Position numbers and translations under genes: made by a program. A stretch of DNA of 27,705 nucleotides from an uncultured Acidimicrobiales bacterium (GTDB lineage Bacteria > Actinomycetota > Acidimicrobiia > Acidimicrobiales > SHLQ01): the NCBI GenBank assembly GCA_964529355.1, contig CAZGVQ010000001.1, positions 1 through 27,705 on the forward strand. The letters are read 5' to 3'. The notes beneath the pieces were generated by a model that was not told where the DNA came from, did no database searches, and worked only from the letters and a program-made list of their open reading frames with translations. Below are positions 17,212 to 27,520 of this stretch, in pieces. Each line of letters begins with the position of its first letter. The stretch's first letter is position 1.

Positions 17212-18402
17212 ATGACCATGCCAGATCCCCTGGACTTCGTCGACACAGCGCAACTGGTCGCGCATACCCGCGAACTCATCGCGATACCGAGCGTGAACCC
17301 CTTCGCCCCGGGCGAAACACCGCCAGAGGGAGAGCGCGAGCAGGAGATTGCGCAGCGTTATGGCGAAATGCTCGGCGAAGTGGGCTGCGAGGTTCGACTC
17401 GAGACGGTTTCGCCCGGCCGCCCAAACGTTGTTGGTTCGCTCAAGGGCAGCAAGCCTGGGCCGACGGTGCTGCTTGCCGGACACCTCGACACCGTAGGGG
17501 TTACCGGTTACGACGATCCGTTTGAGGCCCGCGTTACCGACGGTCGGATCTACGGTCGTGGGTCCTGCGACATGAAGGCTGCGCTGGCGGCTTTTGTCGA
17601 GGTCGGTCGGCTGCTTCATCGGGGCGGTTGCGACTTTGCGGGCGAACTGCTCATCGCGGGCATCGCTGATGAAGAGGATCGCATGGCTGGTTCGGCGCAT
17701 TGGGCGCAGGTCGGGCCGGTTCCCGACTACGCGATTGTGGGCGAACCCTCGAGCCTGGTGGTCTGCCCGGCGCACAAGGGCCAGTTGGGTATGCACATCC
17801 GCACCTTCGGAAAGGCGGTGCACTCGAGCCTGCGCTCTCAGGGAGTGAACGCCATCGAGAAGATGGCCGAGGTCATTGCCGCGTTCTCGACCTACAACGA
17901 CGAACTCACCGCCCGAACACCTCATGAACTGGTGGGACACGGCACCTTCAGTATCGGCGTCATCAACGGAGGCGAGATCATGTCGACCGTGCCTGACCGG
18001 TGCGAGATCGAAGTCGATCGGCGCATGATTCCGGGCGAAACCGTCGACCAGGTCGAGGCGGAGTATCGGGCCATCATCGAGCCCCTTGCCGAGGCAGATC
18101 CATCCTTCCGCTACGAGCTGGATGGGCCAACCATGCACGCGGCCCCGCTCGACACGAAATTGGATTCTGCAGTGGTCACCGCCATTGGTCTGCAGTTCGA
18201 GAGCGTCACCGGTCGGCCCGCGATTATCGAGGCGTTCACCGGTTCGACCGACGCGCCAAACTTCGGCTGTCCGTCGGTGATCTTTGGTCCTGGCAGCCTC
18301 GCCCAGGCGCACTCACTCGACGAATTCGTGTCGATCGATGAGCTGGTAACCGCGACGCAGGTCTACCTCAAGACCGTGCAACAACTGCTTGCGAGTGGTT
18401 AG
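17212..18402 (+). CDS. M20A family metallo-amidohydrolase (ArgE/DapE-like)
   Basis: GHLDTV, GRGSCDMKA, DEE, VGEPS, GPGSLAQAHSLDE. Start set at ATG 17212, downstream of GAGGAAA. Confidence 0.92.
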   Translation: MTMPDPLDFVDTAQLVAHTRELIAIPSVNPFAPGETPPEGEREQEIAQRYGEMLGEVGCEVRLETVSPGRPNVVGSLKGSKPGPTVLLAGHLDTVGVTGYDDPFEARVTDGRIYGRGSCDMKAALAAFVEVGRLLHRGGCDFAGELLIAGIADEEDRMAGSAHWAQVGPVPDYAIVGEPSSLVVCPAHKGQLGMHIRTFGKAVHSSLRSQGVNAIEKMAEVIAAFSTYNDELTARTPHELVGHGTFSIGVINGGEIMSTVPDRCEIEVDRRMIPGETVDQVEAEYRAIIEPLAEADPSFRYELDGPTMHAAPLDTKLDSAVVTAIGLQFESVTGRPAIIEAFTGSTDAPNFGCPSVIFGPGSLAQAHSLDEFVSIDELVTATQVYLKTVQQLLASG

Positions 18403-19394
18403 CGCGAGAGCGTTCTGAGCGACTGATTGGTGGTCGAGACGCTGATGTCAGCGATGCGTGCGTAGGTGGTCTGGGTTGGTGCCCAGTCGACGCTTCCGCC
18501 GCCATAGAACGCTGAGTACAAGAACGAGTCGGCGCCGAAGGTGCCGCTGGTGCGCCAGTTCATCGTGTTGTCGGTGAACACCAGGTGGCCATCGAGCCAG
18601 ACCTCGAGGATGCCATCGCTCTGACCCCGCGAGTTCATGACCACGCGTTGGGTGATGCTGTGCCATTGCTGGCGCTTGAAGACTCCAAAGGTGCCGCGGA
18701 GTTCGCCGAGCTCGTCGGGGCGGTCAGGGTGGTAGAGGTAGACGCCCATCTGGCCGTCGGGCATCCATGCCAGTCGGGCGCTGAAGCCATCGGTTCCGTC
18801 GGCGCCTTCAAAGGTCGGGTTCGTGCCGCCGGCGAGCCCGGGCAACTTTCCGCCCTTGTTCCATTCGAAGTTGCGCTCGAAGTAAATGCGGTACGAAAGC
18901 CACGATTCATCGTCGGCATCGGGAATCGAGGCCGCGAACTCCACCCGTGGTGAACCGTCGGTCGACGGGTCGAAGCGTTGGCGAAGTGATCGTCCGTCGC
19001 GGCCGGCCTTGATCGACAATGCGCCCGGGTGAACGACGTAGTCGATCTTGGTGTCTGCGGCTTCTTCAAGCACGTCGAAGTCAACGCCCCCGAACCCTTG
19101 CGCTTCCATCCCCTTAAAGTTCAGGGCGAACCGCTCCGCTGGTCGACGCACAATGATCTTGTCGATGTCCTGACCCTCGGGGTCGCTGACGTCTTGTTGC
19201 ATCGGTACCGGCTTTTCGAAGCCGAGTTCTGTGACCTCGGGCGTTTCGATGATGAGCGGTTCGCTCTCGGCCAGAGCAACATCGTCGCTCTCGGCAATCG
19301 AACAGCTGGCGGCGAGAAGGCTCAGAATCGCCAGCAAGACCGGGACGGTGCGGGTGGCTGAAACAGAGCGGCGAGAGTGGGGGAGGCTCGACAT
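18399..19394 (-). CDS. Polysaccharide lyase, PL14-like, lipoprotein
   Basis: LSYRIYFERNFEWNKGGKLPGLAGG, DGFSARLAW, VYLYHP, WHSITQRVVMN...DGILEVWLDG, SAFYGG: PL14-type motifs. Lipobox LLAASC. ATG 19394 lies 6 nt after TACCTT. Confidence 0.8.
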   Translation of the reverse strand: MSSLPHSRRSVSATRTVPVLLAILSLLAASCSIAESDDVALAESEPLIIETPEVTELGFEKPVPMQQDVSDPEGQDIDKIIVRRPAERFALNFKGMEAQGFGGVDFDVLEEAADTKIDYVVHPGALSIKAGRDGRSLRQRFDPSTDGSPRVEFAASIPDADDESWLSYRIYFERNFEWNKGGKLPGLAGGTNPTFEGADGTDGFSARLAWMPDGQMGVYLYHPDRPDELGELRGTFGVFKRQQWHSITQRVVMNSRGQSDGILEVWLDGHLVFTDNTMNWRTSGTFGADSFLYSAFYGGGSVDWAPTQTTYARIADISVSTTNQSLRTLSR

Positions 19395-19583
19395 GGACCC
19401 AAGGTAGAAGAAGGGGATTTCGGTCGTAAATGAGTCATCCAGCCATTCTTTGCCACTGAAAATGTCCAAAAGAATCGAAAGATACCAAAAATGGGTATGA
19501 GGTTGGGCCATTTGACCCTGTACGACCACGTAGAGTGGGATTTACTCTGGAAGAAAGCACCCAACGGCAGGAACTCCCCACCA

Positions 19584-25609: not shown

Positions 25610-25618
25610 AGCGGGCCT

Positions 25619-27520
25619 TTACAGGGACATGCTCGGAGCCGAGCTTCTCATGAATTGACGGTGCCAGAGTTCGAAACTCAGCAGGGTGGTGAGCTGGCGG
25701 CGATGGTTGCGCTGTCCGCTGCGATGCTCGTTGAGGATGCGGTCGAGTTCGGTGCGATCGAAGTACTCGCCGCAAGCCGAGTCGGCGGCGAGCATGGTGT
25801 CGTTGAGGAACGAGTCGAGCGCACCCTGGAACCATGAGTCCACCGGGGTTGCGAAGCCGCGCTTGCGTCGGTGGATCACCTTCTCAGGGAGCCAGTTCGA
25901 CGCGGCCAACTTGTGGACGTACTTGGTTTGGCGACCCCGAAGTTTGAACTGCGGAGGCAGTGTCTCGACGAATTCCATGACGTCGACATCGAGCAGCGGG
26001 ACGCGGGTTTCCAACGAGTTCGCCATGGCGAGCTTGTCGCCATAGAGCAACAGATCGTCGGGCAGCGACATCCGGCTGTCGATATAGAGCAGCTGCGTCA
26101 GTCCGTCGAGGTGTTGGACGTCGCGTTGCCAATACCTCATTGGTTGAGCGGCATCGGTGTCGAGTATGTCGTTGGCGAGGTCGGGATGGATCAGCGACGC
26201 GGCGTCGTCGTTGCCAAAAACACTGTGGATGTTGACGAACCGACTGAGCGGGTCGTGTTCGCCCAACGAAGCGGTGGCCCGGCGGAGACGGTCGGTGTGG
26301 ATGTTGTTGCCAGGCAGGCGCTTCATCAGGCCGTCGGAGAGTGGATTGTCGAGCAGCCAACGGACATTCCCGCCGTACTTTTCTCCGAAGTAGCGGTGGT
26401 AGCCCGCCCACGGCTCGTCCGCGCCCTGACCGGTCAGCGCAACCGTGACGTGATCGCGTGCCTGTTTCGTGAGTTGGTAGTAGGCGAACGTGCTTTGGCT
26501 GAGAACCGGCTCTTCCAGGTGCCACATCGATTTCTGAAAGAAGTCGGCAAAGTCGTTTGCATCGATTTTGAACGACTGATGGCGGGTGCCGAGGATCTGT
26601 GCTGTCTCGGCGGCGTCCTCGATTTCGTCCCACTCGAAGTCGTCGTTGAAACCAACGGTGAAGGTGCGCACCGGTTCGGTCGCCGATGACTTGCACATGG
26701 CGGCGGTCACGATGCCAGAGTCAACGCCGCCCGACAGGAGCGAGCCGACCGCCACGTCGCTCATCATCTGACGGTCGACAGCGGTGTTTACCAGCGAGGT
26801 GTACTGCTCGATGGCCGACGCTTCGTCGATGGACGTGTCGGTTCGCGGCACCCTGGTCCAGTACCGCTCCACCCGAACGCCGTCTCGGCCGGCGGTGAGT
26901 CGATGACCGGGCTGGAGTTTGTGGATGTTCTTGAACAGGGTGAACGGTGACGGCAGATAGCCGTACGTCAGGAAGATTCGCAGCGCAGTCGGATCGAGGG
27001 CTCGCGGTACTGACGGATCGGTGAGGATGCTGCGCAACTCCGATCCGAAGATGATGCGGGTGCCGTCGTCGAAGTAGTAGAGCGGCTTGATGCCCATGTG
27101 ATCCCGGGCCAACATGAGCGACTCGTTGGTGGCATCCCAGACCGCCATGCCGAACATGCCGTTGAGATGCGAGGTGACCTGGGGACCCCAACGGTCATAG
27201 CCGTGCACGATCGTTTCGGTATCGGATGCGGTACCGAAGCGATGTCCGGCGCTTTCAAGTTCTCGGCGAAGCTCACGAAAGTTGTAGATCTCGCCGTTGA
27301 GCATCACCTGGGTCGAGCCATCGCGGTTTGCCATCGGCTGATGTCCGCCCTCGATGTCGATGATCGATAGCCGGCGAAACGCGAACCCGACCGCGGGTCC
27401 GGTGAAGAATCCGGCATCGTCGGGCCCACGGTGCACGACCGAGTCGGCCATCGCCTCGAGCATCCGCCGGTCGACCGACTCGCGGGTTGCGTAGTTATAG
27501 ATGCCGGCAATGCCGCACAT
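25619..27520 (-). CDS. asnB: Asparagine synthase (glutamine-hydrolysing) family amidotransferase, polysaccharide-locus type
   Basis: N-terminal MCGIAG (Ntn Cys), HRGPDD, RRLSIID, NGEIYNF, RDHMGIKPLYY, LLSGGVDS, TGQGADE, LETRVPLLD, KRGFATP. Confidence 0.95.
   Translation of the reverse strand: MCGIAGIYNYATRESVDRRMLEAMADSVVHRGPDDAGFFTGPAVGFAFRRLSIIDIEGGHQPMANRDGSTQVMLNGEIYNFRELRRELESAGHRFGTASDTETIVHGYDRWGPQVTSHLNGMFGMAVWDATNESLMLARDHMGIKPLYYFDDGTRIIFGSELRSILTDPSVPRALDPTALRIFLTYGYLPSPFTLFKNIHKLQPGHRLTAGRDGVRVERYWTRVPRTDTSIDEASAIEQYTSLVNTAVDRQMMSDVAVGSLLSGGVDSGIVTAAMCKSSATEPVRTFTVGFNDDFEWDEIEDAAETAQILGTRHQSFKIDANDFADFFQKSMWHLEEPVLSQSTFAYYQLTKQARDHVTVALTGQGADEPWAGYHRYFGEKYGGNVRWLLDNPLSDGLMKRLPGNNIHTDRLRRATASLGEHDPLSRFVNIHSVFGNDDAASLIHPDLANDILDTDAAQPMRYWQRDVQHLDGLTQLLYIDSRMSLPDDLLLYGDKLAMANSLETRVPLLDVDVMEFVETLPPQFKLRGRQTKYVHKLAASNWLPEKVIHRRKRGFATPVDSWFQGALDSFLNDTMLAADSACGEYFDRTELDRILNEHRSGQRNHRRQLTTLLSFELWHRQFMRSSAPSMSL

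Follow-up and report, generated by a model that had tools for sequence, protein, structure and literature searches.

We report on a 27,705-nucleotide stretch of DNA from an uncultured, marine-type Acidimicrobiales bacterium (GenBank assembly GCA_964529355.1, contig CAZGVQ010000001.1; hereafter the window, always at its full length) that carries an operon of three genes, encoding an AsnB-like amidotransferase, an orthologue of the GDP-mannose 6-dehydrogenase AlgD and a glycosyltransferase of family 4 (GT4). The operon is conserved and is well supported as a biosynthetic module, whose product is most likely a surface glycan that bears mannuronate or mannuronamide and is assembled on a lipid carrier, and not alginate. 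Beside it lie genes for a paralogue of the flippase MurJ, for a secreted protein related to glycoside hydrolase family 140 (GH140) and for a polysaccharide lyase of family 14 (PL14). The wider reading, in which the operon and the MurJ-like paralogue together add mannuronate or its amide to a lipid-linked surface glycan and the PL14 enzyme cuts the resulting polymer, has in our judgement the same chance of being right as of being wrong.

The window is the entire contig C1 of a metagenome-assembled genome (MAG) of 4.2 Mb, which consists of 777 contigs and is 86.5% complete. In what follows G000 denotes this genome, C its contigs, other G numbers the sampled genomes and L numbers individual loci. 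The initial annotation of the window had described six contiguous genes, and the list of open reading frames (ORFs) and a Pfam search agree with it on the presence of all six, on their coordinates and on their domains. The features are as follows.

18399..19394, minus strand: polysaccharide lyase of the PL14 type and probable lipoprotein (331 aa if the ATG at 19394 is the start; the ORF at its longest reaches 19529)
19491..21323, plus strand: secreted GH140-like (Apiosidase/DUF4038) enzyme with a Thr/Pro linker and C-terminal RTX repeats (PF13204, PF00353)
21420..23042, plus strand: paralogue of the MurJ-family (MOP) flippases (PF03023, E 2.4e-38, 132 bits)
23039..24148, minus strand: retaining glycosyltransferase of family GT4 (GT-B), encoded last in the operon (Glyco_trans_1_4, Glycos_transf_1, Glyco_trans_4_4)
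24299..25609, minus strand: GDP-mannose 6-dehydrogenase, AlgD orthologue by sequence (three UDPG_MGDP_dh domains)
25619..27520, minus strand: AsnB-like glutamine-dependent amidotransferase, first gene of the operon (GATase_7 and Asn_synthase, E 7e-88)
27521..27705, no strand: divergent intergenic region between asnB and a glmU-like gene that begins on contig C29, with a tandem repeat of 3 x 13 nt

The minus-strand operon runs asnB, algD, GT4 with gaps of 9 bp and 150 bp, and the GT4 and MurJ-like genes share 4 bp at their ends. The latter and the GH140-like gene point in the same direction across a 96-bp gap, with no terminator-like site on the plus strand between them, and the lyase gene is monocistronic and convergent with an M20 peptidase gene. 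Positions 1-76 of C29 correspond to window positions 27630-27705 at 97% identity (76 bases, two mismatches), and because of this end overlap and of the gene order in L054 we take C29 to continue the window. L054 is the closest public relative (AlgD 83% identical) and reads sulfotransferase/pyruvyltransferase, GT4b, GT2, prs, glmU, asnB, algD, GT4, MurJ-like, GH140-RTX, PL14, M20; the order asnB-glmU-prs is found both there and in L055.

The dehydrogenase was compared with all PDB sequences, and its residues 1-436 align with residues 1-436 of Pseudomonas aeruginosa AlgD (1mfz) at 455 bits; the best UDP-glucose dehydrogenase reaches 245 bits, the best solved dehydrogenase of the UDP-ManNAc(A) type (4r16) 129, Cap5O (3ojl) 89 and 3g79 79 bits. 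Among the NCBIfam models, WecC (PRK11064) reaches 131 bits and TviB 88 bits; no AlgD model occurs among the matches in that search, and only a generic nucleotide-sugar dehydrogenase subfamily model passed. Identity to P. aeruginosa AlgD is roughly 50%, as judged by eye on the full-length alignment, and the C-terminal nucleotide-binding domain aligns with AlgD without a gap. The motif FGGSCLPKD, with the catalytic cysteine in GGSCLPKD, and the C-terminal GICW, both quoted in the initial annotation, are indeed present in the translation. Two paralogues used as controls, on C179 and C30, match UDP-glucose dehydrogenases best, and their match to AlgD stops at about residue 360. Among the 120 best homologues listed, all of about 416-455 aa, many carry the automatic annotation (JGI) GDP-mannose 6-dehydrogenase. 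The AlgD-like character proposed at the outset is thus borne out: this strong orthology points to an AlgD-type GDP-mannose 6-dehydrogenase and not to an enzyme of the Ugd or WecC type.

Conservation of the operon was surveyed in 80 genome loci found with the dehydrogenase as query and scored by tblastn with a panel of marker proteins from Acidimicrobiales, a panel that is insensitive to divergent glycosyltransferases and to Wzy; genes of related loci are long ORFs (at least 190-230 aa) named by Pfam, so that short or Pfam-less genes are missed. An AsnB-like gene lies directly upstream of AlgD in 14 of the 80 loci (51-80% identity), 13 of which also have the GT4 and thus the whole trio (48-87% identity); the thirteen come nearly all from MAGs of Acidimicrobiales or other Actinomycetota, and a Latescibacterota MAG (L117) has AsnB-AlgD without GT4. 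A GT4 orthologue of at least 38% identity directly follows AlgD in 27/80 loci, including ones from Armatimonadota, Planctomycetota and Anaerolineae. The remaining genes of the block are rarer in the same loci: MurJ-like in 7/80, GH140-RTX in 3/80 and PL14 in 2/80.

Among NCBIfam families the AsnB-like protein, which begins with MCGIAGI and so possesses the N-terminal cysteine, is matched best by TIGR03108 (eps_aminotran_1, 525.6 bits), ahead of the generic asparagine synthase model (453.7) and of AsnB (300); its best PDB match is the hydroxyamidotransferase 7ylz, at 231 bits. According to PMC7468200, WbpS, WbqG and Porphyromonas gingivalis PGN_1234 belong to the eps_aminotran_1 family, and deletion of PGN_1234 abolishes the uronamide form of a sugar, genetic support for uronamide formation by the family; PMC2615507 argues that such amidation most likely takes place on the nucleotide sugar. 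The best PDB match of the GT4 is the GDP-mannose-dependent mannosyltransferase PimB' (3okc, 49.7 bits), a weak hint that its donor may be a GDP-sugar. GT4 enzymes are retaining.

In three loci of more distant Acidimicrobiales (L104, L060 and L061) the module opens a longer colinear operon, whose order by Pfam is AsnB, AlgD, GT4, a beta-helix lipoprotein, a GFO/IDH/MocA oxidoreductase, a DegT aminotransferase, a Bac_transf priming transferase and a hexapeptide acetyltransferase. In L104 and L060 this operon is followed by an ORF with two transmembrane (TM) segments and then by a MurJ-like gene; L061 has a GNAT acetyltransferase after its priming transferase instead. The GFO, DegT and hexapeptide genes indicate that the repeat unit contains a diacetamido sugar. 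The best family of the GFO protein is UDP-GlcNAc 3-dehydrogenase (172 bits, below the cut-off of 450), and this sub-pathway therefore probably makes the diacetamido sugar from UDP-GlcNAc and needs no AlgD-like enzyme. The beta-helix proteins (PF12708) that follow GT4 are lipoprotein-like and bear a weak resemblance to galacturonidase (about 35 bits, at the N-terminus); they had been considered as mannuronan C5-epimerases, a role that we rejected on finding the DPHD/DPHE motif in 0/6 sequences.

The MurJ-like protein has about 13 hydrophobic segments. A role for it as the housekeeping MurJ was rejected: the genome encodes a stronger MurJ on C117 (257.5 bits versus 132.4 for the window protein), so that the gene in the window is a paralogue. 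It lies near the trio in 6 of the 13 trio loci (L054, L055, L060, L062, L103, L104), and in L056, where the contig is cut at AlgD, it adjoins AlgD-GT4. The association of a flippase with the cluster, which the initial annotation had put forward, thus stands, with a conserved asnB-algD-GT4 operon and a co-occurring MurJ-like paralogue, and the linkage of a MOP-family flippase to glycosyltransferase genes by which Wzx/Wzy pathways are recognised is found here. Candidates for further assembly genes are dispersed in the genome. Contig C185 carries orthologues of the relatives' GFO oxidoreductase, DegT aminotransferase, hexapeptide acetyltransferase and two-TM ORF; the Bac_transf orthologue is on C605 and lies in the same operon in more distant Acidimicrobiales; and there are seven Wzy_C matches elsewhere. 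The two-TM ORF is, by its topology, a candidate co-polymerase-like protein. The same part of C185 (L143, 6-6354) also encodes proteins of 387 aa (about 10 TM segments) and 437 aa (a single one); neither matches Pfam or NCBIfam, and both are candidates for a polymerase or accessory proteins.

The pathway that we propose would begin with the oxidation of GDP-mannose to GDP-mannuronate by the AlgD orthologue, as its strong orthology suggests. By analogy with WbpS, WbqG and PGN_1234, the AsnB-like enzyme would then adenylate the C6 carboxylate and, with glutamine as nitrogen source, turn it into a carboxamide, most probably while the sugar is still nucleotide-bound. The retaining GT4 would move the residue onto an acceptor linked to undecaprenyl-PP and primed by the Bac_transf phosphoglycosyltransferase, and the MurJ-like protein would flip the unit, with the co-polymerase-like and multi-TM proteins on C185 as candidates for chain-length control and polymerisation. 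Finally, the lipid-anchored PL14 enzyme might cleave 4-substituted uronates by beta-elimination for trimming, release or turnover of the polymer. Action of PL14 on the cell's own polymer is the weakest of these steps and, as we see it, could equally well be right or wrong. A second processing step may fall to the co-transcribed GH140-like RTX protein, which could as well be another of the many secreted foraging hydrolases of this organism. Taken as one chain, namely GDP-mannuronate used outside alginate synthesis by Acidimicrobiales and, with the AlgD-GT4 pair, by several other phyla, GDP-mannuronamide formed by AsnB, an alpha-mannuronamide unit added by the GT4 and flipped by the MurJ paralogue, and, in the present lineage, PL14 as the polymer's own processing lyase, the detailed version is doubtful.

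The lyase is encoded by a single-copy gene and matches PF21294 (Polysacc_lyase_14) with E 1.1e-36 and 127 bits, against a cut-off of 27. Read from the ATG at 19394 (MSSLPHSR...), most likely its true start, it has a signal peptide followed by the lipobox LLAAS-C, whose cysteine is kept in the orthologues of L054 and L056; the protein is therefore a probable membrane-anchored lipoprotein. Its best match among PDB sequences is the PL14 alginate lyase of Aplysia (5gmt, E 1.5e-15). K152 (in GGKLPG), S174 and R176 (S-x-R) and Y188 and Y190 (Y-x-Y), which by the reports on vAL-1 and AkAly30 would be the catalytic residues, are invariant in 9/9 homologues from Acidimicrobiia and align with 5gmt. The predicted structure has a mean predicted local distance difference test (pLDDT) score of 64.6; residues 1-91 are below 50 and unreliable, and the core (91-290) lies mostly between 64 and 95 per ten-residue block, with one loop block at 48. 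A Foldseek search with this model gives 5gmt as the nearest structure (E 4e-15), followed by Aly36B of PL36, vAL-1 of PL14 and a PL20 glucuronan lyase, and the structural alignment with 5gmt has 27% identity. PL14 and PL36 are hard to tell apart (PMC11890756). Three PL14 homologues of the sister genus (L010, L011 and L050) have an N-terminal hydrophobic anchor and long linkers rich in Thr, Pro, Ser and Ala, without a lipobox, which is an alternative surface tether for the lyase domain.

Recurrence of the lyase at glycan loci was looked for in an order-wide sample of 301 genomes, including G000, and in another 400 genomes from the phylum. Two sister MAGs, L054 and L056, repeat the six-gene block with PL14 at the same place, as far as AlgD in the case of L056, where the contig is cut. 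In G011, from another family of the order, PL14 belongs to an extensive Wzx/Wzy locus with WecA-like, Bac_transf, GT2, nucleotidyltransferase, UDP-glucose dehydrogenase, Wzy_C, Wzz/tyrosine kinase and Polysacc_synt_3 genes, at a distance of about 6 kb from an AlgD-like gene; in G155 a tyrosine kinase gene and Wzy_C flank it in one direction, and in the other come genes for a beta-helix protein, a GDP-mannose 4,6-dehydratase, an epimerase and a sulfotransferase. Across the order PL14 occurs in 8/301 genomes and AlgD-like genes in 17/301, where AlgD-like, a definition made after the table had been seen, means a match that reaches at least residue 408 at an identity of at least 40%. With G000 excluded, an AlgD-like gene is present in three of the seven PL14 genomes and in 13 of the 293 without PL14 (Fisher p 0.004, for relatives that are not independent, two of the three genomes being of the same genus). 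Other AlgD-GT4 loci carry putative glycan-cleaving genes of different kinds at equivalent places. In G276 (L052), G019 (L053) and G146 (L156) a Heparinase II/III-like gene (666-757 aa) is found directly upstream of AlgD, in Wzy/Wzz-type loci and at the position of AsnB in the operon of the window; G276 also has a PF14099 lyase and a beta-helix protein, and L048, L060, L061 and L104 have beta-helix lipoproteins after GT4.

The GH140-like protein matches PF13204 with E 9e-25 (88.3 bits, cut-off 26.5) and PF00353 in six stretches (E 1e-36), and has one N-terminal hydrophobic segment; its best solved match, the apiosidase 8t9w, is weak (E 6e-9, 38 bits). Its true start may be at 19584, before the signal peptide, and the gene contains ACC-rich repeats at 20704-20867. 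The pair of GH140-RTX and flippase genes is kept in L054, L055 and L056. The genome has 11 matches to the family, and the other ten are scattered beside unrelated genes on C209, C5, C94 (two copies), C366, C54, C205, C438, C452 and C563; RTX repeats form the C-terminal module in five copies (including that of the window), CBM60 in two, and a DUF1996 fusion occurs in one. The family was tried as a marker of polysaccharide loci and discarded, as no glycan-synthesis genes surround the ten other paralogues, with a low-molecular-weight phosphotyrosine phosphatase beside the C94 pair as a partial exception. The link of this protein to the polymer is weaker than that of the lyase, and its proposed membership in the system fares poorly, given that it is one of 11 scattered paralogues of secreted enzymes.

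Several observations weigh against the wider reading, and most of them concern the lyase. Through its retaining mechanism the GT4 should give an alpha-linked product and not an alginate-like beta-1,4 chain, whereas characterised PL14 enzymes act on beta-1,4 polyuronates, and amidation of a uronate removes the carboxylate that a lyase would normally neutralise; the match between lyase and substrate is for both reasons not obvious. L055 (AlgD 78% identical) has a Stf0-type sulfotransferase (16105-17235) in the PL14 slot between the GH140-RTX and M20 genes and keeps the rest, so that the module can do without the lyase. In the sister genus four genomes encode PL14 and no AlgD-like protein, and in G091 PL14 adjoins an MMPL transporter. 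Of the 400 further genomes only three gave a PL14 match, all of the same class and two of them over the family cut-off, and the contexts, judged with the tblastn panel, were mixed. A metagenome search with a seven-sequence core alignment as query yielded 80 loci, 31 of them of at least 8 kb, and a glycan-synthesis marker of the panel accompanies PL14 in only 2/31. Ten of the metagenomic loci were taken for Pfam annotation, which covered nine of them (81/90 ORFs; L197, omitted, mirrors L167 in its ORF layout): glycosyltransferase, Wzy and flippase genes were found in 0/9, and two of the nine are catabolic, one with PL11 and the other with GH88, a rhamnosidase, a GntR regulator and sugar kinases. 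These data count for an alternative that has a substantial, if less than even, chance of being correct, in which the module makes a surface glycan and the PL14 and GH140-RTX proteins are unrelated foraging enzymes for foreign acidic polysaccharides that happen to share a variable island. The scattering of the 11 GH140-like paralogues and their RTX, CBM60 or DUF1996 tails point to foraging, as does the presence of 2-keto-3-deoxy-6-phosphogluconate (KDPG) aldolase in the genome. The characterised PL14 enzymes act on alginate or beta-1,4-glucuronan (PMC8286568, PMC11890756) and are all degradative (PMC8286568). On the other side, PL14 is embedded in the Wzx/Wzy-type loci of G011 and G155 and enriched in AlgD-bearing genomes, the GH140-RTX/flippase pair is conserved, and the slot of PL14 in L055 is filled by a gene of a glycan-modifying type. 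Moreover, the lyase has no gene for a sugar transporter, an oligo-uronate lyase or uronate catabolism next to it, and no PL15/17-type lyase was found in the 86.5%-complete genome; PL7 was not found either, but the control genomes were blank too, so that this result is uninformative. The linkage of PL14 to the cluster proposed in the initial annotation accordingly stands for L054, L056 and the polysaccharide loci of G011 and G155 and fails in most of the 31 metagenomic loci, and its claim that the lyase acts on the host polymer finds no backing in homologues that elsewhere are mostly orphan or catabolic. We regard the tie between lyase and polymer, supported by recurrence within Acidimicrobiales and not by the wider family, as evenly balanced.

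The nature of the product and of its sugar allows further alternatives. The wzy-like multi-TM protein, wzz and priming transferase that were to be sought beyond position 27705 are absent from the window and from its continuation C29, with candidates on other contigs only, and the MurJ-like protein scores 148.9 bits against TIGR01695, below the cut-off of 235.55; both facts weigh against the wider reading, as does the sub-threshold score of the AsnB-like protein given below. It is conceivable, though unlikely, that the module serves a wall-bound polymer of the teichuronic type, or a short lipid-linked glycan that is moved to protein or lipid, with the lyase remodelling the wall or being irrelevant. 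Diacetamido-uronic acids are known in wall polymers of actinobacteria. The block lies among housekeeping genes of the cell envelope (glmU, prs), the flippase belongs to the family of MurJ, which handles lipid II, the compact operons of L060 and L104 also lack a Wzy-type polymerase, and uronamides are known as 'linking sugars' in protein attachment (PMC7468200). Yet the co-polymerase-like two-TM ORF before the flippase in L060 and L104, with its homologue on C185, suggests polymerisation, for which the seven Wzy_C genes could serve, and neither an LCP ligase nor an oligosaccharyltransferase was seen in the loci examined, where no dedicated search for them was made. The AsnB-like enzyme, for its part, scores below the curated cut-off of TIGR03108 (816.9 bits), so that its designation as WbpS-type holds for the best family and not for the score. 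AsnB homologues amidate meso-diaminopimelate in the peptidoglycan of some Gram-positives. We think it improbable that the enzyme gives an N-acetyl sugar an acetamidino group, in the way proposed for WbpG-type enzymes, or amidates a peptidoglycan precursor flipped by the MurJ-like protein, even though its best PDB match (7ylz) acts on a carboxylic acid that is not a sugar and an N-acetylated amino sugar (GFO, DegT, hexapeptide) is also a product of the relatives' operons. TIGR03108 is still its top-scoring family, and AlgD is its tightest and most widespread partner, separated by 9 bp here and adjacent in 14/80 loci, one of them from another phylum and without GT4; in the genome studied here the amino-sugar genes are on another contig and asnB is still with algD. 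Very unlikely, finally, is the possibility that the AlgD-like enzyme acts on a UDP-sugar in the role of WbpA, on the way to a 2,3-diacetamido-uronamide, and that no mannuronate is made. The operon of L060, L061 and L104 does combine WbpB-, WbpE- and WbpD-like genes with a WbpS-like AsnB and no other dehydrogenase, but the full-length AlgD match far exceeds those to 4r16, 3ojl, 3g79, WecC and TviB, the gapless alignment extends over the C-terminal nucleotide-binding domain, and the UDP-GlcNAc 3-dehydrogenase family to which the GFO protein is closest needs no uronic acid.

A lipid-linked glycan with mannuronate or its amide, as we favour, would resemble several known systems in part. With alginate synthesis in Pseudomonas and Azotobacter it would share an AlgD orthologue as the source of GDP-mannuronate and a uronate lyase gene beside the biosynthesis genes. 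It differs in that no Alg8/Alg44 synthase, AlgG, AlgX, AlgK or AlgE functions are found among the Pfam matches of the window and C29, that a retaining GT4 and a MOP flippase are proposed to act on a lipid carrier with an amidotransferase added, that the lyase is a PL14 jelly-roll and AlgL a PL5 enzyme, and that the relatives' beta-helix proteins lack the DPHD epimerase motif. The parallel to AlgL drawn in the initial annotation survives as far as a uronate lyase lies beside AlgD; it is otherwise a loose analogy, as a retaining GT4 would not build an alginate-like beta-1,4 chain. The loci of WbpS, WbqG and PGN_1234 are similar in the best family of the amidotransferase, in the position of its gene, which adjoins that of a sugar 6-dehydrogenase within a glycan locus dependent on a flippase, and, for the relatives, in the WbpB-, WbpE- and WbpD-like genes. 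They are unlike ours in that the partner dehydrogenase here appears, by sequence, specific for GDP-mannose and not for UDP-GlcNAc or UDP-GalNAc, that the host is a monoderm actinobacterium and that the AsnB-like protein falls below the curated family cut-off. The lyase has the jelly-roll and the GGKLPG, S-x-R and Y-x-Y motifs in common with AkAly30 of Aplysia and vAL-1 of a Chlorella virus (PL14) and with Aly36B (PL36); unlike these characterised enzymes it is a lipoprotein with an N-terminal extension of about 120 residues modelled at low confidence, encoded beside biosynthetic genes. The flippase has the Pfam family and multi-TM topology of the lipid II flippase MurJ, but is a second copy below the equivalog cut-off whose linkage to glycan genes extends over several lineages. 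The GH140-like protein has the PF13204 catalytic domain of the apiosidases (Bacteroides thetaiotaomicron BT1012 type; 8t9w) and differs in its weak 38-bit match, its fusion to a Thr/Pro linker and RTX repeats and its 11 paralogues.

What is new here is the combination; Wzx-type glycan loci with a uronamide-forming AsnB and polysaccharide loci with their own depolymerase are known kinds. A literature search that left out most subscription journals and supplementary files found no publication on this gene combination, in keeping with the view of the initial annotation that none describes it in Acidimicrobiia, and nothing on mannuronamide derived from GDP-mannuronate. GDP-mannose dehydrogenase is usually taken as a marker of alginate synthesis, and here it is part of a different and widespread module; if confirmed, this would change the annotation of algD in metagenomes and define a new route of nucleotide-sugar synthesis. 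Should the association with the lyase be real, it would give the PL14 family an endogenous function and its first role coupled to biosynthesis. Acidimicrobiales are abundant and uncultured, and their surface polymers therefore bear on marine and soil carbon. The present work also bears on the actinobacterial origin of the brown-algal alginate genes, which is debated (PMC11468063).

As to the wider setting, the genes rsmI, rmuC, metG, tatD, rsmA and ispE lie upstream in the window, and C29 continues with the glmU-like gene, prs, a GT2, a 760-aa GT4, a sulfotransferase-pyruvyltransferase fusion, a second sulfotransferase, a GalE-type epimerase, rplY, pth and mfd. Because housekeeping genes flank it on both sides, the block described here is an island between ispE and glmU, in a housekeeping stretch that we presume to be a conserved actinobacterial arrangement. 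Between prs and rplY there is a further glycan island (L003, that is G000:C29, 2354-10208); its 760-aa GT4 has an N-terminal region of about 550 aa without known family, its sulfotransferase-pyruvyltransferase fusion measures 742 aa and its GalE-type epimerase has an N-terminal extension of about 150 aa, and its gene content hints at a sulfated, pyruvylated glycan. The glmU-like ORF (C29, 55-1185) has only 376 aa; its match to GlmU profiles of 450-490 positions stops near position 350, so that the acetyltransferase tail is for the most part missing or frame-shifted, possibly through an assembly error. The window DNA has a GC content of 64%, and three long ORFs, 894-2471(-), 318-986(+) and 12392-13216(-), have no Pfam match and no hydrophobic segments and may be shadow ORFs in such 64% G+C DNA. 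In the intergenic region upstream of asnB, the perfect tandem repeat of 3 x 13 nt (27528-27566, unit CTTGTCTAACGGG) stands 8 bp before the start codon of asnB. It occurs nowhere else in the genome and is not shared by L054 or L055, and L055 has a different repeat, of 3 x 12 nt, farther upstream of asnB. The short blocks CTAGGTTTA and TGTCGACCAC are common to the asnB/glmU intergenic regions of the window, L054 and L055.

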